A stretch of 64,000 nt of DNA. Source: Candidatus Nealsonbacteria bacterium (GTDB taxonomy: Bacteria > Patescibacteriota > Minisyncoccia > Minisyncoccales > RBG-13-36-15). Of the stretch, positions 1,699-45,831 are shown in pieces. Every line of letters starts with the position of its first letter. The first letter of the stretch is position 1. Below the pieces are notes generated by a model. That model saw only the letters and a program-made list of their open reading frames with translations, had not been told where the DNA came from and made no database searches. Made by a program: the position numbers and the translations under genes. The stretch spans positions 128,334-192,333 of the forward strand of contig DRFQ01000009.1 in the NCBI GenBank assembly GCA_011050465.1, written 5' to 3'.

Positions 1699-1722
1699 AT
1701 AACTTTCTCTTGCGGCGGGCTT

Positions 1723-1767
1723 GCCCACCTAAATTTCGAAGAAACTTAGGCGGGCTTGTTTTTTTGA
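1723..1767 (+). terminator. intrinsic terminator; short relative of the hairpin inside the 75-bp inverted repeats
   Basis: GCCCACCTAAATTTCGAAGAAACTTAGGCGGGC followed by a T-run. The flanks GGGCTTGCCC...CTTAGGCGGGCTTG match 41165-41213. Confidence 0.65.
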
Positions 1768-9591: not shown

Positions 9592-9609
9592 GCCCGAGGC
9601 AACCACAAA

Positions 9610-29887: not shown

Positions 29888-29894
29888 ATATAAA

Positions 29895-31331: not shown

Positions 31332-31359
31332 ATAATTATATTTTAATTTTATCTATCAA

Positions 31360-31530: not shown

Positions 31531-31592
31531 ATTGAGCTGAATTTGTCGCTTTTTGTGCCTTGCGCGACGTTTTTAGGCTAAATTTTAGTTAT

Positions 31593-31883: not shown

Positions 31884-31897
31884 AAATTTGAGTTATT

Positions 31898-32842: not shown

Positions 32843-32878
32843 GATTTTATTTCTAAATTAATTCTTCGATTTTTTCTT

Positions 32879-33736
32879 CTAAGCCGGGCAGTAATTTGAA
32901 AGCACTTTCTTATAACTATTCGTGTAGTTTTCGCTCTTTCTGAAATATTTTCTATCAACTGTCCCTTCTTTTATGTGATATTCTATCCCTTTCTCCTCGC
33001 AGAATTTTATAACTCTGTAGGCGCAATCATTGTAGAATGTTTTGTAACTATCAAAATAAGTAGTCAAGGCATTATAATTCCATCTACCGAAAACTATTTT
33101 ATCGACAAAAGCTATTTTTTCCAATATTTTGGTTAGATCCTGTTCAATAAGGTTAGGCGTAGGATAAGGTTCCATACTTACCCAAGTTTTCAAACCTTTA
33201 TTATGTAAGAACTTAAGGGTTTTTACTCTTTTTTCTATCGACACAGCGAATGGCTCTTTACTTCTTCTGAATTTTTCAGACAAAGTGATTATAGTCGAAC
33301 CGTATTCATTATCCCTGCCGTAAATATTTTTTTTAGTCAAAATTTTAGGATATATACCTTTACTTATAGTTACCACTTTTATATTGTCTTCATTCAATCT
33401 TTTGATAATTTCTAAGCTAAGATCTACTACTTCTTTTTGTTTATACATAAAAGGGTCTGTCGAAAAACACAAGTAGACATATTTTATATCTTTTTTATAT
33501 TTCGGAATTTCTAGATCTAATAATTCTAAGGCGTTGCTAACAATTTTAGGTCTTATCCATTCTTTGTAATTTTTAATGATCCCACACCTTTTTTTCATCA
33601 GCATTGCATAGCAAGGATAAGTACACCCATGAGAACATCCCTCAACGTGATTAATGCAATAATCAGCGTATTCTACCCCGCTTTTATATAAAAGAGATTT
33701 TCTAATGATTCTCTGCATACTATTATTATATATCAA
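32879..33736 (-). CDS. radical-SAM-like protein with a non-canonical Cx3Cx3C motif
   Basis: INHVEGCSHGCTYPCYAM, versus the canonical Cx3Cx2C in the paralog 22932..23717. Overlaps the upstream gene by 11 nt. Confidence 0.65.
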   Translation of the reverse strand: MIYNNSMQRIIRKSLLYKSGVEYADYCINHVEGCSHGCTYPCYAMLMKKRCGIIKNYKEWIRPKIVSNALELLDLEIPKYKKDIKYVYLCFSTDPFMYKQKEVVDLSLEIIKRLNEDNIKVVTISKGIYPKILTKKNIYGRDNEYGSTIITLSEKFRRSKEPFAVSIEKRVKTLKFLHNKGLKTWVSMEPYPTPNLIEQDLTKILEKIAFVDKIVFGRWNYNALTTYFDSYKTFYNDCAYRVIKFCEEKGIEYHIKEGTVDRKYFRKSENYTNSYKKVLSNYCPA

Positions 33737-34616
33737 AAAGAGCCTTCTGTGGATTTCTCGCCCTGAAGACTTTGGTTTTTTTCTCCCAGAATTCGATCCC
33801 CCTTTCGTGTTTACTGAATAAAATTAAATAATATAAGGAGGTGTTTTTAATATTTTTAAATATGACCAGTGACGGACTCGAGAAATAACCCAAACCTTTT
33901 ATCATATCGATATAATTCTTACATAAATTTCTGATATTTATTTCTTTACTATTTCCCCAGGTTTTTTTATTAGCAATGTCTTTCCATCCAGGATGGAACT
34001 TATCTAATTTCTTAGAATTTAATTTTCTAATTAAGGCAGCAGAAACCGCTCTTTCAACAGAAGCTATTGGGTAATTCACTATTAAGTCTATCTTCCTTTT
34101 TGCTAATTGTTTGTAAGAACTGAAATGAAATTGCAAACTGTCGGGATCTATAACGGCTAAACTTAAAGAATTATCAGAAATAGATTTTTTTATAATGTTT
34201 CCTATAGCCAAATTACAGTCTTCGTTATAATATTCTACACTGTTTTTTTCTTTTGCTCTTTGTTTTAAGCTGTTTATACAGACTGGATTTTTGTCTATTA
34301 AAAAATATTTTGTAAATTTATTCTTTAAATTTATTGCCTCTAGGCAGGTTCCATCTATTTCTTTTAATCCCTCTCTAATAATACACTTTCCTGGGCCCGA
34401 AAATAAATCTATATAATAAAGTTTTGGCCATTTCTTTTTCATCGCCCCCGAAAAAATATCAATGAAATATTTCAAATGTTCAATTTTATCCTTTGACCAA
34501 TAACCGGAACAACGCAAAGCCAACCCGTCATTTTTAGATTTATATTTTTGACATATTCCATCGTTATTATTTACGCAATTACCGTTTTTATAAAACTTAC
34601 ATTTTTTCATAATCAA
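33726..34616 (-). CDS. TcmP-like (three-Cys-motif partner protein) candidate
   Basis: YWSKDKIEHLKYFIDIF...KLYYIDLFSGPGKC fits the remembered W.x.K...L..Y...Y(I/V)D.F(A/S)G.G pattern. Has an extra Cys-rich N-terminus. Confidence 0.55.
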   Translation of the reverse strand: MIMKKCKFYKNGNCVNNNDGICQKYKSKNDGLALRCSGYWSKDKIEHLKYFIDIFSGAMKKKWPKLYYIDLFSGPGKCIIREGLKEIDGTCLEAINLKNKFTKYFLIDKNPVCINSLKQRAKEKNSVEYYNEDCNLAIGNIIKKSISDNSLSLAVIDPDSLQFHFSSYKQLAKRKIDLIVNYPIASVERAVSAALIRKLNSKKLDKFHPGWKDIANKKTWGNSKEINIRNLCKNYIDMIKGLGYFSSPSLVIFKNIKNTSLYYLILFSKHERGIEFWEKKTKVFRARNPQKALFDI

Positions 34617-34688
34617 AAAACCGTCCTAATGAGTGACCTCTACTCTGTTCAATTTTCTGTAATTTAATTTTCTTCATTTTCCATAATT

Positions 34689-35777
34689 TTATTTTCCAGA
34701 TTTAGTTCGATTGTCTTGTTTACACAACATCTGGCAATTCTCTGAAATAGTTTTTCCACCTTCATGCCAAGGCTTTATGTGGTCAGCTTCCATTTCTTCT
34801 ATTTCGAAATACTTCTTGCATTTTGTGCAGACACCTTTTTGTCTCTCATACGCCTCTCGTTTCATTTTGTCAGTAAACGCGCGTATTGAGAGATATTTTT
34901 CTTGTCTAGTCAATACATAAGGGTAAATGCCTGGTTTTTTCGTTACGTCTTCATCTTGCATTAATTCAGCAATCTCGGTTTCTAGTTTATCGACACTTAG
35001 TTTTTTGTCTTTGAATTGATTGTATGGTTCACCCCATTGCACGCTCTTCATCTCTCTGCGATAATTCGTGAAAGTCTTCCTCACCCACGCTATTACATTT
35101 TGGAAATAGTCCCACAGCTCGTCGGCATTCATGTATTGTTGGTGTTTGGCCATGTAATCTTCAATTTTTCCATAGTTGATCCACGAAAGAACAGTTTCCA
35201 AATATTCTTGTCGGATTGGTTTACCGCTGACTAATTGCCCACCGTCATTTGCCAGCAGATACGCAGCGCAGTTTGTTTTGCTAAATTTTAATTTAGCGTC
35301 GGAGAGCCATGGTCCAGTGTAAACTGCATTCCTCAGTTCTTGGTCGGTCAGTTTTTCACCGGCGATATTGATAATTCTAAACCAATCAAGGCGTTCTTTG
35401 TCTGTGCCCTCGCAGATGTAAATCATGAGCTTATAATCCAAAATCTGTTTTTTTTCTTCGCCAGTTAAGTTGTGGAAATAGAGATTATCCAGTGAAAAAT
35501 CTCCGTTCACATATTGCCCAATGCTAATGGTGCGCTGTTGACCATCAAGCATCTCAAAACAATTTTTGTTTTTCAACCAATACATTACATTGAGTGGAAA
35601 ATTCTTGCGTATGGATTCGATAACTTCTTTGCGTTGTTTATCGTTATAGATAAATTCACGTTGATATTTTGGGCGAATATCGAGTTTATCACCATAAGCC
35701 ACAACACCTTCTTCGGCACTGTCTTTGTAGTCCTCGATCACTTCGCGTATTGAAATTTGGTGTAGTTTAATTTTCAT
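34689..35777 (-). CDS. DUF262 (GmrSD N-terminal, ParB-like) domain fused to an HNH endonuclease
   Basis: IRPKYQREF and LDGQQRT (DUF262). C-terminal CTKCKK...ADHIKPWHEGGKT...NCQMLCKQDNRTK (HNH). Confidence 0.85.
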   Translation of the reverse strand: MKIKLHQISIREVIEDYKDSAEEGVVAYGDKLDIRPKYQREFIYNDKQRKEVIESIRKNFPLNVMYWLKNKNCFEMLDGQQRTISIGQYVNGDFSLDNLYFHNLTGEEKKQILDYKLMIYICEGTDKERLDWFRIINIAGEKLTDQELRNAVYTGPWLSDAKLKFSKTNCAAYLLANDGGQLVSGKPIRQEYLETVLSWINYGKIEDYMAKHQQYMNADELWDYFQNVIAWVRKTFTNYRREMKSVQWGEPYNQFKDKKLSVDKLETEIAELMQDEDVTKKPGIYPYVLTRQEKYLSIRAFTDKMKREAYERQKGVCTKCKKYFEIEEMEADHIKPWHEGGKTISENCQMLCKQDNRTKSGK

Positions 35778-35786
35778 ACTAATTCT

Positions 35787-36830
35787 TTATTTTTTATTTT
35801 TAATTAAAATGCGCGCGTAGATTTCTTTGCCGTCTATCGTAAACCTTTTTCCGTAATTTGGATTGTCTTCGACATACCTGTCTATGCCGATAATCTCAAA
35901 CTGCTTGGGATTATATTTATCAACAAATGTAATTGGAACACCCATTACACCTTTGTAGTCCATTGGAATATCAACATACCGATTTATATTGATAGCATCA
36001 TAGTCGTCATACTTGGGATATTCTTCTGAGCTGTACTTTTTATACAAAGTAAGTTCTTCGTGACGTTTTGTTGTATCAAGATTTGTAAACCACGCGATAT
36101 TGCCCATGCTAAAATATTTCACACCATCTTCAATTTTTATTCTCGACTCAGTTTGTATGTCATAGTTCTCGGGAACTTGAAACCACTTTGTGCCGCCATT
36201 GTCATATCCAAGCCATAACCTATTTTCTTTAATTAGTTTGAAAATTTCTTTGTACGTAATGGCGTTTTGATTACCAAGGATCAAAAACTTTCTGTTGTAT
36301 TCCATAAGTTGCTCAACGTATTCACGAAATAGTGAAAACGGGGGGTTTGTTACCACTATATCAGCTCGTTTGAGCAGTTCTGTGCACTCATCGCTTCGAA
36401 AATCACCTTCTCTATTTAAGGGGGTTGCGGTGTTTTTGTCGTGCTTTAGTAAATACTTTACATCGTCGAGGTTTACCGCACCATCGCCGTCGATATCCGA
36501 CACTTCTTTGATTTCGATTTTGAACGGCTCCTTGCCCGTCGGCTTTAGTCCTTCCACCTCAAACAGTGGCAATTGCCCGCCGGCAATCGGCGATTTAACA
36601 TAACTCGTAGTGATGAGTTTTGTTAACCCCAGCGCGTTGAAATTAGCAGCAAAATACTTAAAGAAGTTGCTCTCGAACGGATCATCGCAGTTACAGTACA
36701 CAACTTTACCACGGAATTGGTCCTTGTAGTGCTTCGCCTCTTTTTCAATATCAGAAAGCTGCGTATAAAACTCGTCTTTCTTTGCTTTGTTTGCTCTAAG
36801 GAAAGATGTATTTAAAGATTTAGTTTTCAT
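35787..36830 (-). CDS. EcoRI-methylase-like N6-adenine DNA methyltransferase
   Basis: DEFYTQLSDIEKE...YCNCDDPFESNFFKYF and DIVVTNPPFSLFREY. Confidence 0.8.
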   Translation of the reverse strand: MKTKSLNTSFLRANKAKKDEFYTQLSDIEKEAKHYKDQFRGKVVYCNCDDPFESNFFKYFAANFNALGLTKLITTSYVKSPIAGGQLPLFEVEGLKPTGKEPFKIEIKEVSDIDGDGAVNLDDVKYLLKHDKNTATPLNREGDFRSDECTELLKRADIVVTNPPFSLFREYVEQLMEYNRKFLILGNQNAITYKEIFKLIKENRLWLGYDNGGTKWFQVPENYDIQTESRIKIEDGVKYFSMGNIAWFTNLDTTKRHEELTLYKKYSSEEYPKYDDYDAININRYVDIPMDYKGVMGVPITFVDKYNPKQFEIIGIDRYVEDNPNYGKRFTIDGKEIYARILIKNKK

Positions 36831-36905
36831 AAGGTTATTTTAATTAATCTACCTTAATTTTGCCACTTTTGGATTATTTTGTCTATTTATCAAAGATCTA
36901 AATAC

Positions 36906-36935
36906 TCGACATTTGTCGACATTTGTCGACATTTT
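36906..36935. repeat. three 10-bp-phased TGTCGACA palindromes (iteron/operator-like)
   Basis: TCGACATTTGTCGACATTTGTCGACATTTT, 76-105 bp upstream of the methylase ATG. Confidence 0.8.
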
Positions 36936-36939
36936 CTTG

Positions 36940-36953
36940 AAATGTCGCACAAG
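36940..36953 (-). repeat. right copy of the 14-bp inverted repeat
   Basis: Plus strand reads AAATGTCGCACAAG, the reverse complement of 25499-25512. Confidence 0.85.
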
Positions 36954-36994
36954 ATGCGTTATGCGACGCACATCATGATTATACGTATCAGGGA

Positions 36995-37027
36995 AACAAA
37001 AAAGGCCTCTGGCTGGTGCCTGAGGCT
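36995..37027 (-). terminator. T1-family terminator (cassette a)
   Basis: Minus strand reads GCCTCAGGCACCAGCCAGAGGCC plus a T-run. The 30 nt at 36999-37028 are identical to 37464-37493. Confidence 0.8.
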
Positions 37028-37040
37028 AAGGAATTCTTGA

Positions 37041-37388
37041 TTAGAGGGCTGCGAAAAGTTCTTTTAGTGCAGGAAGCTCCTCTTTGCAAATAGTAAGGTG
37101 TCGAGATGGCCATCCGCCAAAACTCATTTTTGATTTATTCCCTATCAATAGTCTGTAATAGTATTCTTCTTCTACTAATCGTGCTACCCTTGGTGCTTTT
37201 TCTGTTGCTATGGAGCCTCTAAGCCGAACTTCTCCTACGATTCTTGTTTTATTTCCCCTTTCCTTTTCCATTTTTGGGTCTACTCTACGAATAGTCTCAA
37301 CGAAAGCTGAAATCGAGTGTGTTCCGCTTCTTCTTCTGGCAGAACGACGAGCACTTAGAACTATTGCACTTGTTGTTCTTTTTGCCAT
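37041..37388 (-). CDS. hypothetical protein (115 aa), cassette a
   Basis: Track ORF trimmed: the -10 box sits at 37432-37437, and GGAGGTGAAAACAATG gives MAKRTTSAIV... Confidence 0.55.
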   Translation of the reverse strand: MAKRTTSAIVLSARRSARRRSGTHSISAFVETIRRVDPKMEKERGNKTRIVGEVRLRGSIATEKAPRVARLVEEEYYYRLLIGNKSKMSFGGWPSRHLTICKEELPALKELFAAL

Positions 37389-37431
37389 TGTTTTCACCTC
37401 CACAGGTTGTATAAGAGCTATTTGATACTTC

Positions 37432-37460
37432 ACCCTATTACATCCTTAGTTTTTTGTCAA
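37432..37460 (-). promoter_or_regulatory. P1-family promoter (cassette a)
   Basis: Minus strand reads TTGACAAAAAACTAAGGATGTAATAGGGT. Confidence 0.65.
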
Positions 37461-37462
37461 AA

Positions 37463-37491
37463 CAAAAAGGCCTCTGGCTGGTGCCTGAGGC
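37463..37491 (-). terminator. T1-family terminator (cassette b)
   Basis: Identical hairpin to cassette a. Its T-run runs straight into the -35 of promoter a. Confidence 0.8.
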
Positions 37492-37534
37492 TATGGAAAG
37501 AACAAAAAAACCTTGTATTGTATGTGAAGGTTCT

Positions 37535-37777
37535 TTAATACCCCGTCGTAAAAATTGTAATCGTTATAAAAAACGATAATAATACATATAGTAAAATGAA
37601 GGTTCTCTTGCCTTCTTGCAACCAAAAGGTGAACGAGGCTATCCACATACTAACTGCCATAATAAAATGCAAGAAAATGGAACCAAAAAAGATATTTAAC
37701 ATACTCATAACAACCACAAAAAAAATAATTCTTAGGGCGATACTTCTCTTCTCTATACTTTGATCCATTGTCCTCAT
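37535..37777 (-). CDS. small membrane protein (80 aa, 3 TM), cassette b
   Basis: Hydrophobic throughout; own promoter and terminator. Confidence 0.55.
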   Translation of the reverse strand: MRTMDQSIEKRSIALRIIFFVVVMSMLNIFFGSIFLHFIMAVSMWIASFTFWLQEGKRTFILLYVLLSFFITITIFTTGY

Positions 37778-37813
37778 TTCCTAGTTTGGAACGAACTAAC
37801 GAAGAACTGCTTA

Positions 37814-37842
37814 ACTCTATTACAACCTTAGTTATTTGTCAA
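37814..37842 (-). promoter_or_regulatory. P1-family promoter (cassette b)
   Basis: Minus strand reads TTGACAAATAACTAAGGTTGTAATAGAGT. Confidence 0.65.
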
Positions 37843-37843
37843 A

Positions 37844-37867
37844 CCCTTCGATAAACTCAGGGTAAAC
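37844..37867. repeat. GC-rich mini-repeat copy (inverted orientation)
   Basis: CCCTTCGATAAACTCAGGGTAAAC, wedged between terminator c and promoter b. Confidence 0.6.
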
Positions 37868-37900
37868 AAAAAGGCCTCGATGCTCTGCTGAGCCGAGGCT
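37866..37900 (-). terminator. terminator (cassette c)
   Basis: Minus strand reads GCCTCGGCTCAGCAGAGCATCGAGGCC plus TTTTTGTTT. Confidence 0.7.
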
Positions 37901-37917
37901 TGTACAGAATATGTCTC

Positions 37918-38235
37918 TTAGTTCAAAAGTTTTTGAAGATCTTCTCCTTGTAGAACTTGCCGTTGACCTTCTGTTGGCTCAAAAGTTAGCTGTTCTGAAA
38001 CCCAGATAAATAGGGATCCTCTTTGAAGAAATCTTTCTCTTTGAAGAAAAATAAATCTTCCCTTTGGAGTTACGATCGAGACCTCACGGTTACAAAGATC
38101 GCTTGGTATTCCAAAGGGATCGCCGAACGTTACAACTTGAAGATCAGAAAGACTCAAAGCAATATTGTTGGTTGCTGCCAGTTTTTCTGCGGCTTTCATC
38201 TCTTCTGAAATTTCGGTTAGGTCGATTCTGTCCAC
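37918..38235 (-). CDS. hypothetical protein (105 aa), cassette c
   Basis: GTG start 6 nt after AAGGAGG. Confidence 0.55.
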   Translation of the reverse strand: MDRIDLTEISEEMKAAEKLAATNNIALSLSDLQVVTFGDPFGIPSDLCNREVSIVTPKGRFIFLQRERFLQRGSLFIWVSEQLTFEPTEGQRQVLQGEDLQKLLN

Positions 38236-38282
38236 GTTTCCCCTCCTTATTTAGGAATGAATGAACTAATTAACGATTTTTA

Positions 38283-38311
38283 ATTATATTACATCCTTAG
38301 TTATTTGTCAA
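38283..38311 (-). promoter_or_regulatory. P1-family promoter (cassette c)
   Basis: Minus strand reads TTGACAAATAACTAAGGATGTAATATAAT. Confidence 0.7.
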
Positions 38312-38451
38312 CTCAAAATAGCCCTATTTTTGGAAAAAATCAAATTCCTTCCCCACCCCGCCTATCGATATCTGTCTACCGACAAATCCACAAAAAATAC
38401 CATAGCGGGAACAAGCTAAAAAATTATTAGGGCTTTAACGACGTGCAACCG

Positions 38452-38480
38452 TTGACAAATCACTAAAAATATAATATGGT
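38452..38480 (+). promoter_or_regulatory. P1-family promoter (cassette d)
   Basis: TTGACAAATCACTAAAAATATAATATGGT. The 5'UTR (CTTATACAACGGAGGTAAAAACAATG) is homologous to that of cassette a. Confidence 0.65.
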
Positions 38481-38522
38481 TAGATATCAATAGATAGCCC
38501 TTATACAACGGAGGTAAAAACA

Positions 38523-38717
38523 ATGAAAGGAAGCGAAGTAGTAGGAAAGTGCCCACACTGTGGAGGAGACATTATTGACCGAAAAAAGCTCGTGGGTATA
38601 GTTGCCATTTTGATGCAAAGTCCGACACCAGAACTGGCTGTTGAAAAAATAACAGAGAATGAAAAGCCATATTTCTGCGGCGATTGTAGTGAGGAATTCG
38701 ACACTGTTCCGTCGTAA
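38523..38717 (+). CDS. zinc-ribbon protein (64 aa), cassette d
   Basis: CPHCGG...CGDC. Confidence 0.6.
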   Translation: MKGSEVVGKCPHCGGDIIDRKKLVGIVAILMQSPTPELAVEKITENEKPYFCGDCSEEFDTVPS

Positions 38718-38742
38718 CCGATTAGAGAGCTTTCGTTCATAT

Positions 38743-38776
38743 CCTCAGGCGCAAGCCAGAGGCCTTTTTTGTTTTT
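38743..38776 (+). terminator. T1-family terminator (cassette d)
   Basis: CCTCAGGCGCAAGCCAGAGGCC plus TTTTTTGTTTTT. Confidence 0.8.
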
Positions 38777-38847
38777 CTCTTGATCCCCTACCACTTTTTA
38801 TCTTTTATGTTTACATTCTATCTCAAACCTAAAAAAGTGGTGGGGGG

Positions 38848-38875
38848 TTGACTAAAGCTGTAGAAGAATTATCAT
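38848..38875 (+). promoter_or_regulatory. promoter of structured element copy 1
   Basis: GGTGGGGGGTTGACT-N16-TATCAT, about 85% identical to 44487-44520 on the minus strand. Confidence 0.6.
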
Positions 38876-38881
38876 TAACTC

Positions 38882-39079
38882 AGGAGAGAGGAGGTGGTCG
38901 CTTTTACCTTCGCGAACAACCCAGGCTGGGGCGGCCTGGGACGAATGACCTCCCTCTGGTCATTGGTCACTTTCTCTCTCCTATCAACTCTTTACAGTTC
39001 TTTCTACGACAAGCTCTTTGGGACGTATGTCCCACATCGCAGGGCCACCACCAACAACAACATCGGTGGCCTTTTTTTT
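38882..39079 (+). ncRNA. structured non-coding element, copy 1 (about 200 nt)
   Basis: 15-bp closing helix GGAGAGAGGAGGTGG / CCACTTTCTCTCTCC. Inner hairpins CCCAGGC/GCCTGGG and AATGACC/GGTCATT. 3' hairpin TGGGAC-GTAT-GTCCCA, then terminator GGCCACC...GGTGGCC plus T8. Confidence 0.5.
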
Positions 39080-39106
39080 GACAAATCATTAAGGATGTAA
39101 TATGGT
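39078..39106 (+). promoter_or_regulatory. P1-family promoter
   Basis: TTGACAAATCATTAAGGATGTAATATGGT; its -35 overlaps the preceding T-run. Confidence 0.65.
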
Positions 39107-39151
39107 TAAGTAGCAATAAACAGCACATTCCCAAGAAGAAGGGAATCAAAG

Positions 39152-39550
39152 ATGGCTCAAAGCCCATCGGAAATAGAAAAGAAAACCCGCCTTAAAGAAT
39201 TATGGATGTTACTATTTGGTAACCCAATCAATCTAACTGACCCCGAGATTGAAAGATTACTTGAGTCTGAAAAAGAACTTAGAACAATTTTGCATTTTAC
39301 CTACAGTGGATTTCCCCATCAGATAGAAAGAGTAAAAAAACATCATGCCAAAAAGAAAGAGCTATCTGAACTGCCTACAGAGAAGTTGGTGGAAATGAAA
39401 TGTGCGATAGAAGAAAATAGACTGGCTGTTCTTAGGTCAACCAACGAGGAAGAACTTTCAGATTCATTCTTTGAGGCTCCTCCCATTGACTCCAATGAAC
39501 ACATCCTGAATGAGATTCTAAAAGAACGGGGTGTTGACTGGCGAAAATAG
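39152..39550 (+). CDS. hypothetical protein (132 aa), cassette e
   Basis: Own P1 promoter and terminator. Confidence 0.55.
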   Translation: MAQSPSEIEKKTRLKELWMLLFGNPINLTDPEIERLLESEKELRTILHFTYSGFPHQIERVKKHHAKKKELSELPTEKLVEMKCAIEENRLAVLRSTNEEELSDSFFEAPPIDSNEHILNEILKERGVDWRK

Positions 39551-39588
39551 AAAGATTCTTAAACAGGCAATCCCGATTCGATATATAA

Positions 39589-39622
39589 GCCTCTGGCTCA
39601 CGCTAAGAGGCCTTTTTGTTTT
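39589..39622 (+). terminator. T1-like terminator (cassette e)
   Basis: GCCTCTGGCTCACGCTAAGAGGCC plus TTTTTGTTTT. Confidence 0.75.
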
Positions 39623-39720
39623 CCGGCTTGCCTCGGGCTTGAATTCTTTTATTTAACATGATAGGCTAAAAATCCAAACATAGCACCTTTACAGCTTAGA
39701 CCGAAAAGGGGGTAAGAAAA

Positions 39721-40293
39721 GTGAAATACCTCTTGTTGCTTTATCTAATCCAGCCCTACATAGATGTTTTCATTGGCGAAGAACCGCCCGACGTAAAGAA
39801 AAAATTTGCTGCCCTCTATAAAAAGATTGTGCGAGAAAGATATCCAGGGTTCCAAGTAGTTTGTGTATTTTTTTCTAAACCAAGCGAAAAAAAAGAACCT
39901 GACCTTTCTCAGAAGTGGGATATTTTTTCACTTGAAGAAAGCTATACTATAGAGGCCTGTGGAGTAACATTCGCTGATCATTGTGATAATCAAACATATC
40001 CCAAAGAAAACGACATTCTTGAATTATGTCCTGGCCCAATTGATGAATTGATTGTTAGCGGATTCCATTTTTCTGATTGCGTAGAAAAAATTGCCAAGTT
40101 TGCCCACAAGCAAGGCATTCAAGTTTTTGTAGATGAAGATCTAACAGAATTATTCTTTTATGGAATAAAAATGGGAGTTCCAATTTCTCGTGAAGCAAGC
40201 ATAAGAAGAACAAAAAAGTTGTTCAGAGAAAGTTTGCTTCTGGATTTTGTGCGCGAAAACCGTAAAGGGAGACCATGGCTGGTCCAGCTTTAA
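39721..40293 (+). CDS. hypothetical protein (190 aa), weak isochorismatase/cysteine-hydrolase-like C-terminal pattern
   Basis: GTG start after AAGGGGG. LIVSGFHFSDCVEKIAKFAHKQGIQVFVDEDL resembles the isochorismatase-fold core. Promoter CCTCGGGCTTGAAT at about 39633-39670. Confidence 0.5.
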   Translation: MKYLLLLYLIQPYIDVFIGEEPPDVKKKFAALYKKIVRERYPGFQVVCVFFSKPSEKKEPDLSQKWDIFSLEESYTIEACGVTFADHCDNQTYPKENDILELCPGPIDELIVSGFHFSDCVEKIAKFAHKQGIQVFVDEDLTELFFYGIKMGVPISREASIRRTKKLFRESLLLDFVRENRKGRPWLVQL

Positions 40294-40493
40294 GCTGAGT
40301 CACCAATACGACTTGGCTTTTTTTGTTCTTAATGACCAATAGTAGCTCGCCGTTTGTAACCTAAGAAGCCATGGATAATGGTCTGCTAATCTCTCGACTC
40401 CGCTCAGGGTGGTAAGCCTATCGAACCATTGGCTTAAGTTTGAGATGGAGGCAAGGATTTAATGCCCGAGAGTTGTTGCCCCTCGTGAAAAAC

Positions 40494-40522
40494 TTGACAA
40501 ATTCAAAGTATGGGAGTATAAT
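40494..40522 (+). promoter_or_regulatory. consensus promoter of structured element copy 2
   Basis: TTGACA-N17-TATAAT. Confidence 0.65.
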
Positions 40523-40528
40523 GCTATT

Positions 40529-40797
40529 ATTGACTGATATTCGTTCTTTTTGAAAAAATGTTGTCAGCTATTCAGCAAATTGTTCATCTGAAAAGGTGGT
40601 CAGCTTGCTGGACAGATGAAAGGAGACGTTCGCCAATAGCCCAAGATGGTGGAGCTGTCGCAGGCGCCGGCCAGCTTGGGCGCACTAGATCAACCAGATC
40701 ATCCGCGCGTATACCTGCCATCTGTTCGGCACAGCACTTTTCGAGGACTTATGTCCTCACCTATAGGGTCACCCATAACAACAACGGTGGCCCTTTT
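40529..40797 (+). ncRNA. candidate non-coding transcript sharing the 3' module of copy 1
   Basis: GAGGAC-TTAT-GTCCTC hairpin plus GGGTCACC..AACAACAAC..GGTGGCCC terminator. There are two compensatory changes relative to 39019-39071. Confidence 0.35.
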
Positions 40798-40829
40798 ACT
40801 TTCTACCTATCTTTTAGATGGGTTTTTGT

Positions 40830-40858
40830 TTGACAAATAACTAGAAATGTAATAATAT
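40830..40858 (+). promoter_or_regulatory. P1-family promoter
   Basis: TTGACAAATAACTAGAAATGTAATAATAT. Confidence 0.6.
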
Positions 40859-40903
40859 CGAATTAAATAGTACATTTGTCGCCATAACGACAAGGAGGTA
40901 GTA

Positions 40904-41083
40904 ATGGCGAACGAGATTTTATTATGCGGCGGCGCAGTTTTACAAGGCGTCGAGAGAGCGGTTGATGAGGGGGGTGAGGATCTTGTTGTCACCCTAGAAA
41001 ATGTAGGGACAGTTCTTGTTCCTAAAGGGAATATAGCAAAGATTGACATACTAATAGAAACCGAAGAAGAACCCGACGAATAA
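40904..41083 (+). CDS. hypothetical acidic protein (59 aa, below the track cutoff), cassette f
   Basis: AAGGAGGTAGTAATG. MANEILLCGGAVLQGVERAVDEGGEDLVVTLENVGTVLVPKGNIAKIDILIETEEEPDE. Terminator at 41124-41151. Confidence 0.55.
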   Translation: MANEILLCGGAVLQGVERAVDEGGEDLVVTLENVGTVLVPKGNIAKIDILIETEEEPDE

Positions 41084-41123
41084 ATAATTTCTAGTTCTTT
41101 ACTTACTATTCAATCCTTCTTCA

Positions 41124-41151
41124 AGGTCTCGCTCAGAGACCTTTTTGTTTT
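41124..41151 (+). terminator. intrinsic terminator (cassette f)
   Basis: AGGTCTC-GCTCA-GAGACCT plus TTTTGTTTT. Confidence 0.75.
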
Positions 41152-41171
41152 CAAAAGGAGTTATTGGGCTT

Positions 41172-41246
41172 GCCCTCCCAAATTCGCCGCAGAGGCGAAC
41201 TTAGGCGGGCTTGACTTATTTATTGAGGTTGTTATGATATAAAATC
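41172..41246 (+). repeat. 75-bp inverted repeat, left arm (hairpin plus promoter)
   Basis: GCCCTCCCAAATTCGCCGCAGAGGCGAACTTAGGCGGGCTTGACTTATTTATTGAGGTTGTTATGATATAAAATC. 74/75 identical to the reverse complement of 45285-45359. Confidence 0.9.
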
Positions 41247-41283
41247 GTAGAGGAAGGACAGCACTTTCAAGGAGGTTAAAAAG

Positions 41284-41568
41284 GTGGCAGAGACAACCGA
41301 AAACAAACGGCAAAGTGGACAAGTCAAAGATGGAAAATGGTTGGTGCTAACCGAGAGTACTAGAAAGCCAGACAAGTGCTATACACATACCTGTGGCACA
41401 GAAATTTTAGGCGAAAAAATAGCTCATCCTGTTTGGGATGGTCCGACTCCACTTTCTGGACACGGTCAGTGCGAATATGAAATGGTTCCTTATTGTCCAA
41501 AATGCGAAAATAAACCAAACCCTCAAGGGGTGCCGATAACTCCCAAGGGTAGCCATCGTAATCTTTGA
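41284..41568 (+). CDS. zinc-ribbon protein, paralog of 2054..2371
   Basis: GTG start 8 nt after AAGGAGG; shared C..CG..IL...VPYCP.CE..P pattern. Confidence 0.6.
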   Translation: MAETTENKRQSGQVKDGKWLVLTESTRKPDKCYTHTCGTEILGEKIAHPVWDGPTPLSGHGQCEYEMVPYCPKCENKPNPQGVPITPKGSHRNL

Positions 41569-41752
41569 CCTAATTACTTTATAGGTTCTTGGTAGAAGTT
41601 CTTTTAATTAATCCGATATAAACCGCAATCCGGCTCAAGGTCCTCCCGACACTCGTCAGGAGGCTTTTTTATTTCCCCGATACGCTCACAGGACAGAAAC
41701 TAAAAAAAACGGCACGAAATTATCGTACCGACCAAAACAGCAACACGTATTT

Positions 41753-42724
41753 TTAATGTACCTGCTTTTGCCTGATTATTTCCCGCAATACTCCCTCAAC
41801 TAATTTCAGGCTTTTTTCGTCTATTATAGAGACAGCCAGCACTTCTTTTCCTGTTTTTTTGAGGAGGGCCATTTTCTTTTTAATGTCTTTTTCGGGCAGT
41901 AAGTCGGTTTTGGTCAGAAAAACGTATTCCGGCTTTAATAAAAGCTCCTTATTGTAAACCTCAAGTTCATTCCTGATGGTTTTGTAGTCTGCCAAAGGAT
42001 CTTGGGATTCAGACGAAATAAAATGGAAAAGGATTTTTGTTCTTTCAATGTGCCGAAGGAATTTAATGCCTAAACCCTTGCCTAAAGAAGCTCCCTCAAT
42101 AAGGCCCGGGACGTCAGCCAAAACGAGCCCGTAATAAACTCCCAAGTTGGGATTCAGGGTCGTAAAAAGATAATTAGCCACTTTACTTTTAGCCTTGGTC
42201 AGCTCGTTTAATAAACTGGATTTACCGACATTCGGCAAGCCGACAAACCCAACATCAGCTATCATCTTCAATTCCAATCTCAATTCGTATTCCTGCCCCA
42301 AAGAACCTTCTTCAAATTCCCTGGGAGTCGTATTAATAGATGATCTAAATTTAAAGTTGCCCCGCCCTCCTTTGCCGCCTTCAGCCATCAATGAACGCTG
42401 CCCTACAAAAACAATTTCTGAATCCTGTTTCAAGAACAAATTATGAATGACCGTACCCACGGGTACCTTTAAGAAAAGGTCTTTACCGTCTGCGCCGTCG
42501 TTGAATCCCTTTTTGCCGTTTTCCCCATTTTCAGCTGACAGTTCTTTTTTGTAGCGAAATTGATTCAAAACACTTAGATCAGAAACCCCTTCAAGATAAA
42601 CACTGCCTCCCCGACCGCCGTCCCCACCGGTAGGCCCGAGAGTCATTTTAACCTTACTGAAAGCCACGGCCCCCCTGCCGCCGTCACCAGCTTTCACCCT
42701 AATTTTGACGTCGTCAATCAGCAT
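41753..42724 (-). CDS. obg: GTPase Obg
   Basis: Gly-rich Obg fold (GGDGGRGG, GGKGGRGN) and GLPNVGKSS G1 motif. Confidence 0.93.
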   Translation of the reverse strand: MLIDDVKIRVKAGDGGRGAVAFSKVKMTLGPTGGDGGRGGSVYLEGVSDLSVLNQFRYKKELSAENGENGKKGFNDGADGKDLFLKVPVGTVIHNLFLKQDSEIVFVGQRSLMAEGGKGGRGNFKFRSSINTTPREFEEGSLGQEYELRLELKMIADVGFVGLPNVGKSSLLNELTKAKSKVANYLFTTLNPNLGVYYGLVLADVPGLIEGASLGKGLGIKFLRHIERTKILFHFISSESQDPLADYKTIRNELEVYNKELLLKPEYVFLTKTDLLPEKDIKKKMALLKKTGKEVLAVSIIDEKSLKLVEGVLREIIRQKQVH

Positions 42725-42898
42725 ATTATTTAATTATTTTGCGCGTGGACTATAAAGCAACCTTATAATATCATATAATCCATAGATGCTAGAAGCCCAT
42801 ACATCTGGCATAGATTGTACGCTTTTTCATATAGCCTTATCCTGGATTTTTACTTGCTTTTTTATATATTTTTCCTATAATTAAAACGGAAGACAAAA

Positions 42899-43117
42899 AT
42901 GACAATAGAAACTATTTTTGATATTATAGGTTCCATCTCTTTCTTGATTATCGCAATATTTATCTGTGTCACATTTTACTATTTAATTAAAATCCTTAGA
43001 GATATTTCAAAAATAACCTACCGATTTCGCGAAAAAAGTGAGCAATTTGCAGGTTTAATTACAGCTCTAATAGCAATGCTTAAAAAGACAATAATCGGCA
43101 GAAAAAAAAGAAAATAA
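42899..43117 (+). CDS. small membrane protein (72 aa)
   Basis: One TM helix followed by an amphipathic helix. Confidence 0.5.
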   Translation: MTIETIFDIIGSISFLIIAIFICVTFYYLIKILRDISKITYRFREKSEQFAGLITALIAMLKKTIIGRKKRK

Positions 43118-43137
43118 TAAATATAAATATTAACAAT

Positions 43138-43470
43138 ATGACAGTCCAAAAAACCACAAAAAAAGGAACAGGCAAAAAAATATTGGCAGCCGCGATTTTG
43201 GGTGTGCTTGCCGGAATGCTGTTAGCTCCCAAGGCTGGCAAAAAACTAAGGAAGGATCTGAAAAATATTGCCCAAAAGATGGAGAAGGAGATAATTCGAC
43301 AGGCCGGAAGAACCAAGAAGCTAACTCAAGGAAAATATGAAGATATTGTGGAAACGATGGTCAATTCTTATACCAAGGCGAAAAAGATTAAAAAAGAGGA
43401 TGTGAAAGCGATAACCAGGAACCTCAAAAAAATCTGGATTGACTTGGTAAAGAAGATAAAATCGAGATAA
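43138..43470 (+). CDS. YtxH-like protein
   Basis: ILGVLAGMLLAPKAGKKLRKDLK. Confidence 0.7.
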   Translation: MTVQKTTKKGTGKKILAAAILGVLAGMLLAPKAGKKLRKDLKNIAQKMEKEIIRQAGRTKKLTQGKYEDIVETMVNSYTKAKKIKKEDVKAITRNLKKIWIDLVKKIKSR

Positions 43471-43510
43471 GCTTCGTGCAATTAATGGTTGATTTTTTAC
43501 CCCAGCGTGC

Positions 43511-43538
43511 GTCACGCTGGGTTTTTTCTTGCTCTTCT
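43511..43538 (+). terminator. intrinsic terminator
   Basis: CCCAGCGTG-CGT-CACGCTGGG plus TTTTTTC. Confidence 0.8.
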
Positions 43539-43632
43539 CCTATTTTTAGAAAAAGACGAATTTGTTCAATGGGACAAAAAAAAGCTCGCCGGAATGGCGA
43601 GTTTTAAAACGCAAAATTAACTAAGGTACTAT

Positions 43633-43875
43633 TCATAGACAAAAATAGCTGCCCAGACCATTACTCCAAGGGATGTAAATACTGTACTTTATCTTTCCTA
43701 ATCCATCGCAATACACACATTGGCTAAAGATACATTCAGGACAATTATCAGGCACGCCGCTGCGTTCGCAGCTTACATTTAATCTACCTGTACCGTTACA
43801 CATTATGCAAGGTTTTCCGCGCCAGTTCTTTAAAAACGTTGTAATAGCCTTCAATATATTCCTTATTGCCGTCAT
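43633..43875 (-). CDS. DnaJ-type CxxCxGxG zinc-finger protein (80 aa)
   Basis: CIMCNGTGRL and CVYCDGLGKI. Start moved to the ATG 8 nt after GGAGG. Confidence 0.6.
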   Translation of the reverse strand: MTAIRNILKAITTFLKNWRGKPCIMCNGTGRLNVSCERSGVPDNCPECIFSQCVYCDGLGKIKYSIYIPWSNGLGSYFCL

Positions 43876-44023
43876 ATTCTCCACCTCCAAGTTGGGAATG
43901 TACTGATTTCCTTGTCCCGTAGTAGAGAAAAATCTCGTTCAGGGGTTTGAAAGGATGAAGTTGGTTGGTCGCCACGGATAAACCTTACTGCCTATTCGAT
44001 TCCTTGACCTTCCAACCCCATCC
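43876..44023 (-). ncRNA. structured 5' leader (motif X, copy 2)
   Basis: GCGGATGGGGTTGGAAGGTCA...GCGACCAACCAACTTCATCC is homologous to 9700-9800 on the minus strand. Confidence 0.4.
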
Positions 44024-44029
44024 GCATTC

Positions 44030-44058
44030 AATTTATCTTTAATCTGGACGATTGTCAA
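44030..44058 (-). promoter_or_regulatory. consensus promoter
   Basis: Minus strand reads TTGACA-N17-TAAATT. Confidence 0.6.
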
Positions 44059-44135
44059 TATAAAAAGCCCGAAAAACATTTTATGTGGAGGCAAAACATT
44101 TCTTTGGAAACAAAAAACCCGCGTTAGAGACGGAG

Positions 44136-44171
44136 CAAAAATAGTAAGAGCTCATCTTATGATGAGCTCTT
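44136..44171 (-). terminator. intrinsic terminator
   Basis: AAGAGCTCATC-ATAA-GATGAGCTCTT plus ACTATTTTT on the minus strand. Confidence 0.8.
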
Positions 44172-44307
44172 GAGCAATGTGCCCTTGTGCGTCTTCCGGC
44201 TGTTCTCCAACCGGAGCTTCTGCATAAAGAGTTGCAAGCAAAGGAAGGTGAAGAAGACATGGATCCTTCCTAATCAGTTCTATGATTTTCTTGAAAACAT
44301 TTATCAA
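44152..44307 (-). CDS. possible 51-aa protein downstream of structured element copy 3
   Basis: TTG start 9 nt after AGGAGG. (M)INVFKKIIELIRKDPCLLHLPLLATLYAEAPVGEQPEDAQGHIAQELIIR. The stop lies inside the terminator stem. Confidence 0.3.
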   Translation of the reverse strand: MINVFKKIIELIRKDPCLLHLPLLATLYAEAPVGEQPEDAQGHIAQELIIR

Positions 44308-44351
44308 TTCGGTTTACCTCCTTTCCTGCAATCATTCTTAAAAGAACTAGT

Positions 44352-44480
44352 AGGAGAGAGAAAGTGGCAGGGTTATGGGGGGAACACAGCAGGTCACGTG
44401 CGTTCCCGTGGCACCTTGGGTGAAGGTGATAGCTCTCTCTCCGCGTGAAGAGGGAGGTCAAGAACCACCTTCTCTCTCCC
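44352..44480 (-). ncRNA. structured non-coding element, copy 3 (acts as a 5' leader)
   Basis: 15-bp helix GGAGAGAGAAGGTGG / CCACTTTCTCTCTCC encloses a divergent 97-nt core with GGGAAC/GTTCCC and CACCTT/AAGGTG hairpins. Confidence 0.45.
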
Positions 44481-44486
44481 AAGTTA

Positions 44487-44514
44487 ATTATAGCTCTTCT
44501 ACATTTTTAGTCAA
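44487..44514 (-). promoter_or_regulatory. promoter of structured element copy 3
   Basis: Minus strand reads GGTGGGGTTGACT-N16-TATAAT. Confidence 0.65.
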
Positions 44515-44688
44515 CCCCACCACCAATCCTAGGTTAGTCTATTGAACTTACAACGACTTAAGCCGATAGGCGGCTTCGCCTTATGGCTTTTTTAAATTCA
44601 TCATGCCTTGGCTGGGACTGGTGGGGGGCCAAGAAACAAACAAAAAGGCCTCTTGGCATAAGCCAGAGGCTATAAAAAGATTGGTTTT

Positions 44689-45207
44689 TCAATGATTCAC
44701 CGCTCTTAACGTTTCCTCTTCTAATCTAGAGATAAGATCTTGATTAGCGTTAAAAAAGTAGCGATGTGTCCTTCCTTCTTTTTCTATGCGAATCAAATTT
44801 GCTCTCCGAAGATTACCCACCATTCCCCAAACAGACCTTCTGGTTAAGTATCTTGCTTCGGCAATATCTTTTATGGTACAGCCAGGGTTTTTTATAATAT
44901 AAAGCAGAGTGAAACCTTCTGTGGTGAAAAATTGGCGTTCGGGAGAATTATTGTCTGCATTTTGTATAATATCTAAAGGGTTACGGCTGGCAGAGTGATA
45001 GTGTTTTCTACCTATTTTTTCAAAAGATATATATTCCCCTTGAATTAAGAGACATGTATGGTCAAAAAATCCCCAGACAGTTCGTCTGGTCAAACCCAAG
45101 GCATCGCCAATCTGAGAAACTGTTGGTTCTTCTCCTTTTTGATTTTTTTGTCTAATAAAAAAGTAAACCGAACCAACGGTTGACAGAAGCCGAATATCTT
45201 CTCCCAT
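44689..45207 (-). CDS. tandem winged-helix (HTH) DNA-binding protein
   Basis: Two repeats: VSQIGDALGLTRRTVWGFF and IKDIAEARYLTRRSVWGMVGNL. Confidence 0.7.
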   Translation of the reverse strand: MGEDIRLLSTVGSVYFFIRQKNQKGEEPTVSQIGDALGLTRRTVWGFFDHTCLLIQGEYISFEKIGRKHYHSASRNPLDIIQNADNNSPERQFFTTEGFTLLYIIKNPGCTIKDIAEARYLTRRSVWGMVGNLRRANLIRIEKEGRTHRYFFNANQDLISRLEEETLRAVNH

Positions 45208-45284
45208 CGTTCTCTCCTTTCCTTGTTCGCCTTTTTCGCAGCTACTCTCTATTCAATTAGGAAGGTACAGACCCTCCTGCCTAT

Positions 45285-45359
45285 GATTTTATATCTTAAC
45301 AACCTCAATAAATAAGTCAAGCCCGCCTAAGTTCGCCTCTGCGGCGAATTTGGGAGGGC
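45285..45359 (-). repeat. 75-bp inverted repeat, right arm
   Basis: Reverse complement of 41172-41246 with one mismatch in the -10 box (TAAGAT versus TATGAT). Confidence 0.9.
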
Positions 45360-45375
45360 AAATTTAAGAAACCCT

Positions 45376-45831
45376 TTATTTCCTTATCCAGCCTTTTAGT
45401 CTTTCCCAGAAGTTTTTGCCGGCTTTGGAAACTTCTTCTTTTATTTCCTGCTTTTCTTTTTCTAACTCCCTGGGTATTGCTTCTTTTCTTTTTTCCACTT
45501 CTTTATTAAAAATACCAAAAATCTTTTGCCATATCCAATCAACCTTGGGCCAGATTTTAGAATCCCAGATGTCTATGAACCAATTCGCCATTCTTTGCCA
45601 AATCTCTACAGCTTGCTGCCAAACTCCCTTTACGGCCCTTGGTAAAGGTTCAATGATTTTTTTAACAAAAGACCAAACTTCCTCAAAAGTCTCTGGCACC
45701 TTCGGCGACTGCTTTACGTCTTGAGCCAAAGCGAAACTTGGCAGGAGTAAACTAAAAACAAAAAACAAAAAACAAAAAACAAGGAACGGGGAGCGAGACT
45801 CATTATTGATTATTCTTTGTTCTTTATTCAT
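45376..45831 (-). CDS. secreted/membrane-anchored hypothetical protein (151 aa)
   Basis: N-terminal hydrophobic segment; Trp-rich helical body. Confidence 0.55.
   Translation of the reverse strand: MNKEQRIINNESRSPFLVFCFLFFVFSLLLPSFALAQDVKQSPKVPETFEEVWSFVKKIIEPLPRAVKGVWQQAVEIWQRMANWFIDIWDSKIWPKVDWIWQKIFGIFNKEVEKRKEAIPRELEKEKQEIKEEVSKAGKNFWERLKGWIRK

Follow-up and report, generated by a model that had tools for sequence, protein, structure and literature searches.

Near-identical stretches of DNA that face each other across a conserved gene raise a simple question: do they act on the DNA between them, or do they state the same signal twice? The case considered here lies in 64,000 nt of Candidatus Nealsonbacteria DNA (contig DRFQ01000009.1, positions 128,334 to 192,333 of the forward strand), which we call the window. 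Within it, two arms of 75 nt, at 41172..41246 (+) and 45285..45359 (-), bracket a segment that carries obg, and each arm joins a hairpin to a predicted promoter directed into the segment. From the letters of this DNA, an original prediction had proposed that the repeat might invert the segment or else record the duplication of one regulatory module. We consider it probable that the 75 nt of each arm do not form a single functional unit and are a mosaic of two separable modules: a copy of a dispersed palindrome, here termed PPE, and a duplicated promoter.

Hairpin and promoter within the repeat

The repeat is real and statistically secure. Direct comparison of 41172–41246 with the reverse complement of 45285–45359 gives 74 of 75 identical positions, the near-perfect match that had been claimed, and the sole mismatch (T at 41235, A at 45296) falls in the -10 box, again as claimed, at the third base of the hexamer (TATGAT versus TAAGAT). 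A repeat search extends the pair to 97 nt at 91% complementarity (arms 41154–41250 and 45281–45377, with 4030 nt between them) and no other inverted repeat in the window is as long. With up to 3 mismatches allowed, neither the 29-nt hairpin core nor the 32-nt promoter part occurs anywhere in the 64 kb but at these two places, and 100 dinucleotide-preserving shuffles yielded 0 matches. Identity between the arms ends about 7 nt past the -10 box, about where transcription would be expected to start, and the leaders diverge from there: that of the Zn-ribbon gene on the left occupies 41247–41283 (+), and that of the helix-turn-helix (HTH) gene on the right carries ATAGGCAGGAGGG. The outer flank of the left arm carries AAAGGAGTTATTGGGCTT.

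The first module is a 39-nt hairpin, at 41172–41210 and 45321–45359, in which GCCCTCCCAAATTCGCC and GGCGAACTTAGGCGGGC pair around GCAGA, the imperfect hairpin originally described in each arm. As PPE copies, the two extend over 41164..41218 (+), where CTTG stands on either side of the core, and 45313..45367 (-). A covariance model, R1, finds exactly three copies in the window: the left arm at 47.7 bits, the right arm at 47.0 and a copy at 1715..1763 (+) at 46.5 (E about 1e-9). This third copy has another apical stem, is followed by the terminator-like T-run TTGTTTTTTT, and lies upstream of a gene for a 60-aa membrane protein and of a paralog of the Zn-ribbon gene (2054–2371; 30% identity, E = 2e-13); both the ‘shorter relative’ of the hairpin noticed here and the paralogy had thus been read correctly. 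All three copies fit the PPE consensus, with an outer stem GCCCGCC/GGCGGGC, an asymmetric AAGTT/AATTT position and a variable apical stem, and the arm hairpins are recent duplicates of each other. The arm copies run into TTGACTTATTTATT, which the scan did not call as a terminator. On the right, the PPE begins 14 nt past the stop codon of a 151-aa gene and is the only hairpin beyond that gene able to serve as a terminator; it holds the same place, with a T-richer tail, in strain L004, and it probably also terminates or insulates the upstream murG-gltX-151aa operon. On the left, a canonical intrinsic terminator (41123..41143, +) directly upstream of the arm makes the PPE redundant in such a role.

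The second module is a predicted promoter. Before the Zn-ribbon gene (41284..41568, +; 94 aa, no Pfam family) it comprises TTGACT, the 16-nt spacer TATTTATTGAGGTTGT and a TG-extended -10 hexamer TATGAT at 41211..41238 (+); before the tandem winged-helix gene (44689..45207, -; 172 aa, with MarR_2/HTH_24 matches) it reads TTGACT-16-TAAGAT, likewise TG-extended, at 45293..45320 (-). The two genes lie where the original prediction put them relative to the arms, and its inward -35/N16/-10 promoters are recovered, as predictions of activity, by a consensus scan (10/12 and 9/12 matches, sigma-70-like, TG before the -10 box). The promoter halves are identical at 40 of 41 positions, upstream of two unrelated genes. 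Related genomes show which of the genes it belongs to. In the related species L063, the HTH ortholog has a promoter TTGAAT-TATTTATGAGGATTGT-TAGTAT and a conserved leader hairpin with no PPE, and a plain GC hairpin (CAAGCCCCGC-TAC-GCGGGGCTTG) runs into the promoter from upstream; because the -35 box, spacer and extended -10 box are kept there, the promoter is native to the HTH gene. The Zn-ribbon ortholog of L069 shares its leader (GGAGGACAGCACTTTAAAGGAGG) with the window gene, whereas its promoter spacer differs, and a plain terminator hairpin rather than a PPE lies upstream. On the simplest reading, the HTH promoter was copied together with the flank upstream of it, and this copy replaced or overwrote the Zn-ribbon gene’s own promoter in this lineage. 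The idea of a duplicated regulatory module is supported for the promoter half, which the HTH ortholog of L063 keeps and whose spacer differs at the Zn-ribbon ortholog of L069; the hairpin half is a generic dispersed element.

It is a second strain that parts the two modules. The exact HTH protein is encoded on 11 contigs. Three of these (L001, L002 and L003) are 100% identical to the window over 15–16.5 kb and a fourth (L065) differs by 2 bases; from this identity and from their Loki’s Castle-type marine-sediment sample names, we infer that the four are re-assemblies of related data, not independent samples. L004 (BAEC19-1) is an independent strain, 99.9% identical. In L004, as in L005 and L007, the right-hand hairpin leads into a different promoter, placed to drive a 108-aa PurL N-terminus fragment (PF18072), and then a terminator. 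This purL-fragment cassette (L004 7387–7882, corresponding to window ~45320) accounts for 496 nt bounded by CGGGCTTG direct repeats, is absent from the window and has no homolog elsewhere in it. Because the cassette parts hairpin from promoter on the right arm of so close a strain, the 75-nt repeat is unlikely to be one functional unit. Past the cassette, the HTH promoter of L004 (..TTTTTGTTTACAAAGGGAGTTATTGCCTCGGGCTTG/ACTTATTTATTGAGGTTGTTAAGAT) stands with no adjacent hairpin and has CCTCGGGCTTGAC there instead; the 75-nt match, perfect but for its one -10 base, exists only in strains whose right-arm hairpin and promoter abut.

The same comparison offers a view of how the junction may have formed. 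The left arm resembles a filled site and the L004 HTH promoter an empty one: GTTATTG..GGGCTTG[PPE..CTTG]ACTT against GTTATTGCCTCGGGCTTGACTT. The 3' end of the cassette is also the only relative (25/27) of flank A (CCTTTTTGTTTTCAAAAGGAGTTATTG; 41140..41166, +), which lies between the upstream terminator and the left arm, and since this match precedes the L004 HTH promoter, the promoter duplication extends upstream of the point at which the left-arm PPE sits. The PPE sits at the CTTG of the -35 region (cTTGAC), and with CTTG flanking it on both sides the -35 hexamer is left intact.

What the shared promoter might do depends on the HTH protein. It appears to be rare, with only three homologous clusters in a word-filtered search; the L063/L064 relative, 64% identical, keeps the order of 151-aa gene, HTH gene and a YtxH gene on the opposite strand. 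An AlphaFold2 (AF2) model (pLDDT 85.6) has two tandem winged helices and a C-terminal helix, in which single domains resemble MarR/MepR-type repressors and the tandem arrangement resembles ScpB, ESCRT-II and SarS. The protein could plausibly bind DNA and regulate its own gene. That the spacer is kept along with the hexamers points to an operator within the HTH promoter, and from the shared promoter we infer common control of the two genes. This control would most likely lie with the winged-helix protein, through binding to the spacer (TATTTAT(T)GAGG(A/T)TTGT in its conserved form), yielding an autoregulated two-promoter regulon. A testable idea emerges: a Zn-ribbon protein and a rare tandem winged-helix protein, both products of small uncharacterized genes, under one promoter. 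The Zn-ribbon family itself numbers about 25 clusters, with the organism annotated as Candidatus Nealsonbacteria, and its orthologs in three relatives occupy unrelated neighbourhoods, in none of which a link to PPE, to obg or to the HTH gene is kept.

Some observations on promoters accompany these. The motif CCTCGGGCTTGA overlaps the -35 box of several of them (8520–8530, -; 9589–9599, -; 39631–39641, +; L004 7879–7889; L056 ~1195–1205), always 10–25 nt past a terminator tail TTTTTGTTTT, and it resembles the PPE 3' end (GGCGGGCTTG). It has the look of an upstream motif or an extended -35 box peculiar to the clade, and because it recurs close to the -35 box at 8520, 9589 and 39631, the GGGCTTG beside the PPE is ordinary promoter sequence here. 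A promoter-leader module, TA(T/C)AATGTTAA(T/C)TAAAAA(G)TAGGA(G/A)(G/A)GA(C/T)AGTTCTTAATA, is about 85% conserved between two species and stands before unrelated genes, each time directly after a PPE (L004 7390–7450, L056 1255–1320, window 41247–41283 and L069 6960–7000 are the sites listed). Zn-ribbon orthologs have in common a diverged AGGA(A/G)GGACAGCACTTT leader.

A palindromic family in Patescibacteria

The hairpin half leads well beyond this locus. The outer stem common to its copies, written as the degenerate pattern GCCCGCCTAAGTT-N(4–20)-AATTTNGGNGGGC, was searched in a collection of species-representative genomes and gave 56 sites in 54 loci from about 45 species-level metagenome-assembled genomes (MAGs). 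Nearly all are Patescibacteria/Parcubacteria, including Yanofsky-, Yonath-, Taylor-, Nealson-, Taga- and Niyogibacteria, Minisyncoccia and others. That many dispersed copies would mark the repeat as a generic, REP-like element had been foreseen; this is what the hairpin half turns out to be, in about 45 other Patescibacteria MAGs, while the promoter half is specific to two genes. Beyond the duplication of the arm copies and the placement near Zn-ribbon paralogs, the hairpin has no special link to the obg segment.

A typical PPE reads (CAAG/CCAG/CTGG/CTTG)-CCCGCC-N-AAATTTTGC-NNN-GCAAAACTTAGGCGGG-(same tetranucleotide), within a length range of 35–42 nt. Covariation is seen at the two pairs of the apical stem, where 44 copies show 16 and 11 double compensatory changes, and an exact 4-nt flanking direct repeat (CAAG, CCAG, CTGG or CTTG) is present in 17/58, far above chance. 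R1 finds additional copies in the pattern loci, up to 3 per 8 kb. Copies within one genome have private apical stems—those of L023/L025/L046, of L015 and of the two arms here—as within-genome copying would produce. The asymmetric position, with AAGTT on one arm and AATTT on the other, reads as G.T or as A.C depending on the strand, and it is present too in copies outside the preselection made by the pattern. Where copies lie in long open reading frames (ORFs), the sense strand has A.C in 14 and G.T in 4 (p = 0.03).

In all three window copies, likewise, the A.C strand is the sense strand of the flanking genes, which is why the antisense strand folds better. The sense-strand hairpins have three mismatches and reach -21 to -24 kcal/mol; for the left arm, the fold is -24 kcal/mol sense against -29 antisense, and R1 scores 47.7 bits on the - strand against 24.4 on the + strand. 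An antisense RNA function for the hairpin was considered and dropped, the fold asymmetry being that of the family-wide G.T/A.C position and transcript context for an antisense RNA being absent.

Copies occupy intergenic DNA, often at gene 3' ends, and also lie in frame inside genes. About a third (18/56) are well inside open frames of at least 600 nt, where they usually encode ..LAR(Q/P)NFxxQNLGG(L/Q)A... A comparison of filled and empty sites comes from grpE, which in several Yanofskybacteria has a PPE after the DDLE(R/K)A motif. About 20 of the 120 closest GrpE homologs have A[HR]QNFxKQNLGGQA after DDLE[RK]A, and the remainder, including one that is 75% identical, have a short AAKEINN-type loop in its place; compared as DNA, the filled genes are longer than the empty ones by an insert of 36 nt. 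These filled and empty grpE sites, the flanking direct repeats and the comparison of the left arm with the L004 HTH promoter are signs of insertion. Individual sites illustrate the range of hosts: the PPE peptide forms the C-terminal tail of a 164-aa kinase-like protein (L024 7289–7783, -), a loop in a family-1 glycosyltransferase (L042 1914–3050, +), and a loop past the DDLERA motif of a GrpE (L033 1517–2020, +).

Searches elsewhere returned little. The PPE pattern gave 0 matches in viral contigs, and the arm found none, or chance 24-nt promoter-like matches at E = 0.8, in phage and plasmid collections. No Rfam family matches the hairpin, and the literature searched holds no description of such a palindromic element in Patescibacteria. 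We advance only tentatively, as a possibility less likely than not, that PPE is an undescribed hairpin element of Parcubacteria at large, one that has strand polarity and is still mobile. Were it mobile, a near-invariant 37-nt sequence across orders, the G.T/A.C position, the CWWG-type flanking duplications and the 14:4 orientation bias would point to a conserved trans-acting enzyme for which the substrate is a single strand in its folded form, much as attC or IS200/IS605-RAYT systems work. Insertion at gene ends and at the CTTG of -35 boxes might create portable terminator-promoter junctions, and in-frame insertion might lengthen GrpE and other proteins by ~12 residues. Through short homologies at PPE ends (CGGGCTTG), small gene cassettes could in turn be gained and lost, L004 and this strain differing in that way, and the repeat that brackets obg would be one outcome of such activity that can be seen.

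The family is the part of this analysis most worth follow-up, with its REP-like size, its RPE-like in-frame insertions and a sequence unusually conserved across orders. If mobile, it would bear on regulatory rewiring and on the tolerance of protein insertions in minimal genomes. There are practical consequences too: automatic annotation pipelines will keep PPE peptides such as ..ARQNFAKQNLGGQA.. as genuine protein sequence, and short-k assemblies break at the repeats.

Rival readings and the wider locus

Could the segment nonetheless flip? Near-perfect inverted homology of 75 bp, the longest in the window, is above the length generally needed for homologous recombination, and RecA-type inversion across the arms is physically possible. 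The arms might thus be recombination sites that turn the 4-kb obg segment over, either in a programmed way or by frequent RecA-mediated inversion. Short-k Logan assemblies (L006, L074 and L075) break exactly at the arms, since a 75-nt repeat meets k = 31, and give no orientation information that would contradict this. Contigs that cross both arms (91, 362, 259, 20 and 28 kb, including the independent L004) do, and all show one orientation. The Zn-ribbon gene, found on ten contigs, stands beside the 151-aa/gltX side in 0/10; the right junction is syntenic in L063, at 64% identity of the HTH protein; and the right arm of L004 is split by 496 nt. Pfam tables list no recombinase, whether invertase or resolvase, within 8 kb on either side, and the only one among the window ORFs scanned is of the tyrosine type, a XerC/D-like gene (6915–7871) that lies 33 kb away in conserved housekeeping synteny, beside uppS and L27 as in L069. 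Nor would anything switch on a flip, because the arms carry near-identical inward-facing promoters (40/41) and the two products would be equivalent, with no change in wiring. An exact scan of metagenome contigs for the recombinant junction gave 0 matches, which says little in a collection that barely holds the organism (a control with the 28-nt promoter core found one 5-kb contig), and the GC-skew profile, which tracks the coding strand only, is uninformative on past inversion. Inversion as originally proposed is therefore not borne out: we rate flipping of either kind as very improbable, although a rare RecA-mediated flip in a minority of molecules is conceivable, and inversion as a programmed switch with regulatory effect is not supported. 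The tempting idea of an invertible segment carrying the gene of an essential GTPase is thereby removed.

Two further readings keep the repeat whole. Hairpin and promoter might act together as a single regulatory cassette of 75–97 nt, duplicated to join two genes in one regulon, the hairpin perhaps giving the winged-helix protein an operator, an activator site or an attenuator. The arm PPEs are indeed identical to each other, with a private apical stem, and abut the -35 box in both arms; identity persists at 61% in the outer 18 nt past the 75-mer, which belong to the 97-nt match at 91%, and the third PPE lies near the paralogous Zn-ribbon gene. Set against these are the occurrence of the hairpin family in about 45 other species, when the HTH protein is apparently rare, its presence inside coding regions, an L004 HTH promoter that stands with no adjacent hairpin, and the lack of a PPE at both the L063 HTH promoter and the L069 Zn-ribbon promoter. 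On balance, we find the joint cassette doubtful, and the hairpin as a specific operator of the HTH protein was rejected, the family being widespread, the protein rare and the two separated in L004. Least probable of all, to the point of being hardly credible, is that obg and its neighbours ride on a mobile islet or composite transposon, with the arms as its terminal inverted repeats. They do bound a discrete 4-kb block, and Zn-ribbon orthologs elsewhere stand in differing neighbourhoods; yet there is no transposase in or beside the block, obg counts among the core genes, the ends of the repeat fall at an expected transcription start rather than a synteny break, and the arms have no matches in phage, plasmid and viral collections. 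The HTH-YtxH adjacency and the 151-aa/HTH junction are kept in L063, which has no repeat, and this conserved right junction, with the missing transposase, led to rejection of the composite transposon.

The reading that we prefer, a mosaic of a PPE copy and a duplicated promoter, has to contend with several points that weigh against it. There are only three PPE copies in 64 kb; two of them flank the segment with identical sequence, and two of the three precede the two Zn-ribbon paralogs. This placement differs from random dispersal, and so leaves room for a local functional link or for duplication of the whole arm (97 nt, 91%). The direction of the indel is contested, the outgroup L063 having no cassette even though the cassette end carries the homolog of flank A. 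Part of the promoter similarity reflects a clade-wide consensus, since the L069 promoter is itself ~27/41 like the arm promoter, and ScpB, whose fold is likewise similar to that of the HTH protein, does not act as a transcription factor. Orientation was read from assembled contigs that represent about two independent samples and one related species. Finally, the promoter, terminator and operator roles are predictions made from sequence. What carries the mosaic through these objections is observed directly: the identity of the repeat, membership of the hairpin in the PPE family, the separability of the modules, the single orientation in assemblies and the conservation of promoter and leaders. 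Promoter and terminator activity, regulation by the HTH protein and a mechanism of PPE mobility are extrapolations from these.

Between the arms, ORF and protein scans recover the gene content that had been listed for the segment: obg (41753..42724, -; 323 aa), a YtxH-like gene, a 72-aa membrane protein, an 85-aa CxxCxGxG protein and a long ORF-free stretch. An Rfam search of the whole window found no family at gathering score, Rfam matches on the arm and on 36.8–45.4 kb were at chance level, and a tRNA/tmRNA scan found none. GC-rich ORF-free stretches at 43900–44520 (-), 38844–38898 (+) and 40490–40825 (+) have no Rfam match. They contain strong predicted promoters (44514 to 44487 at 11/12; 40494–40522 at 12/12) and terminators (44171–44146, 44134–44118 and 40805–40823), and the promoter and 5' end at 44464–44518 are 85% identical to 38844–38898. 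These stretches, the ‘structured element’ copies of the original prediction, look like a family of noncoding RNAs of ~300 nt. The region 36900–45000 is a patchwork of reused regulatory modules: a promoter type TTGACAAATCA..TAATAT is repeated at 37436, 37818, 38287, 38452, 39078 and 40830, and a terminator AAACAAAAAGGCCTCTGGC.. at 36994, 37459, 38740, 39588 and 44638.

Elsewhere in the window, the efp ORF (61862–62521; 219 aa) contains a 48-nt tandem duplication (62067–62162, 94% identical) that gives elongation factor P an in-frame 16-residue repeat. Short tandem GGAGGTGGTGGCG-type repeats at 10679–10762 encode a Gly-rich stretch in a 395-aa BtrH_N/Peptidase_C39-like ORF (10035–11222). A defence-like cluster at 29042–36830 comprises a D12 adenine methyltransferase (29042–29887), DUF4268 (31898–32842), a GmrSD_N+HNH endonuclease (34689–35777) and an EcoRI-type methyltransferase (35787–36830).

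Comparison with known systems

Several well-characterized systems share one trait or another with this locus. Like invertons—fimS, hin and the Bacteroides capsule promoters—it has inverted repeats that bracket a segment and involve promoters. An inverton holds its promoter between short inverted repeats, next to the gene of a dedicated recombinase; here, the repeats themselves contain the promoters, which are near-identical and face inward from either end, no recombinase gene adjoins them and the contigs show a single orientation. Integron attC sites, including the Vibrio cholerae repeats, are imperfect palindromes whose conserved unpaired or mismatched positions give strand polarity, as in PPE, and a gene cassette adjoins a PPE in one strain, L004. 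An attC site has R''/R' core sites (RYYYAAC...GTTRRRY), spans 57–141 nt and belongs to a cassette array with intI. PPE has CTTAGGC/GCCTAAG with no G|TT core (RYYYAAC/GTTRRRY) at its ends, measures 37–40 nt against 57 nt or more, occurs inside ORFs, and has no cassette array and no IntI nearby. The 11-mer CTTAGGCGGGC is presumably part of the V. cholerae repeat (VCR). It turned up in a paper on integron attC x attI1 recombination and in one on V. cholerae genomic fingerprinting, and we regard the match as chance. An attC-like site was accordingly rejected, for want of core sites at the ends, for its length of 37–40 nt and because no integrase was seen.

The promoter half has a closer parallel in the propagation of promoters. 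The Correia elements of Neisseria are promoter-bearing MITEs (transposable elements of the miniature inverted-repeat kind), and, as in such elements, a small repeat here abuts a -35 box. Mobile promoters and promoter propagation in prokaryotes were reportedly the subject of work by Matus-Garcia et al. in 2012; the locus agrees with that idea in having a near-identical promoter upstream of non-homologous genes, with identity ending at the transcription start. It departs from both mobile promoters and MITEs in having two copies only in 64 kb and in a promoter that lies outside the repeat element, from which it is separable in L004.

For the hairpin half, REP/BIME and the Rickettsia palindromic elements (RPE) provide the templates. 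REP/BIME are repetitive extragenic palindromes of Proteobacteria, mobilized by RAYT transposases. PPE resembles them as an imperfect palindrome of 20–40 nt with many dispersed copies, frequent at gene 3' ends, able to serve as terminator or mRNA-stabilizing hairpins and conserved in its stem asymmetry. PMC3733652 describes a GTAG/CGTC head as a REP feature. PPE has no such head, starting instead with (C)NNG-CCCGCC; it is not strictly extragenic, with 18/56 copies inside long ORFs; and it keeps the same sequence across many orders, where REP are species-specific. No RAYT (TnpA_REP) gene turned up among the window ORFs scanned, which lie within 64 kb of the genome and were not searched specifically for RAYT. 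RPE measure about 100–150 bp, run from RPE-1 to RPE-8 and belong to the Rickettsia lineage. Ogata et al. are said to have described them in 2000 as selfish DNA inserted in frame in protein-coding genes. PPE is similarly palindromic, similarly both intergenic and in frame in conserved genes, and similarly present in one and absent from another of two close orthologs, as in grpE; it differs in being 35–42 nt long, adding ~12 residues, and in its spread over Parcubacteria, against 100–150 bp in Rickettsia only. If PPE does prove to be mobile, it would be the Patescibacteria counterpart of the REP and RPE elements.

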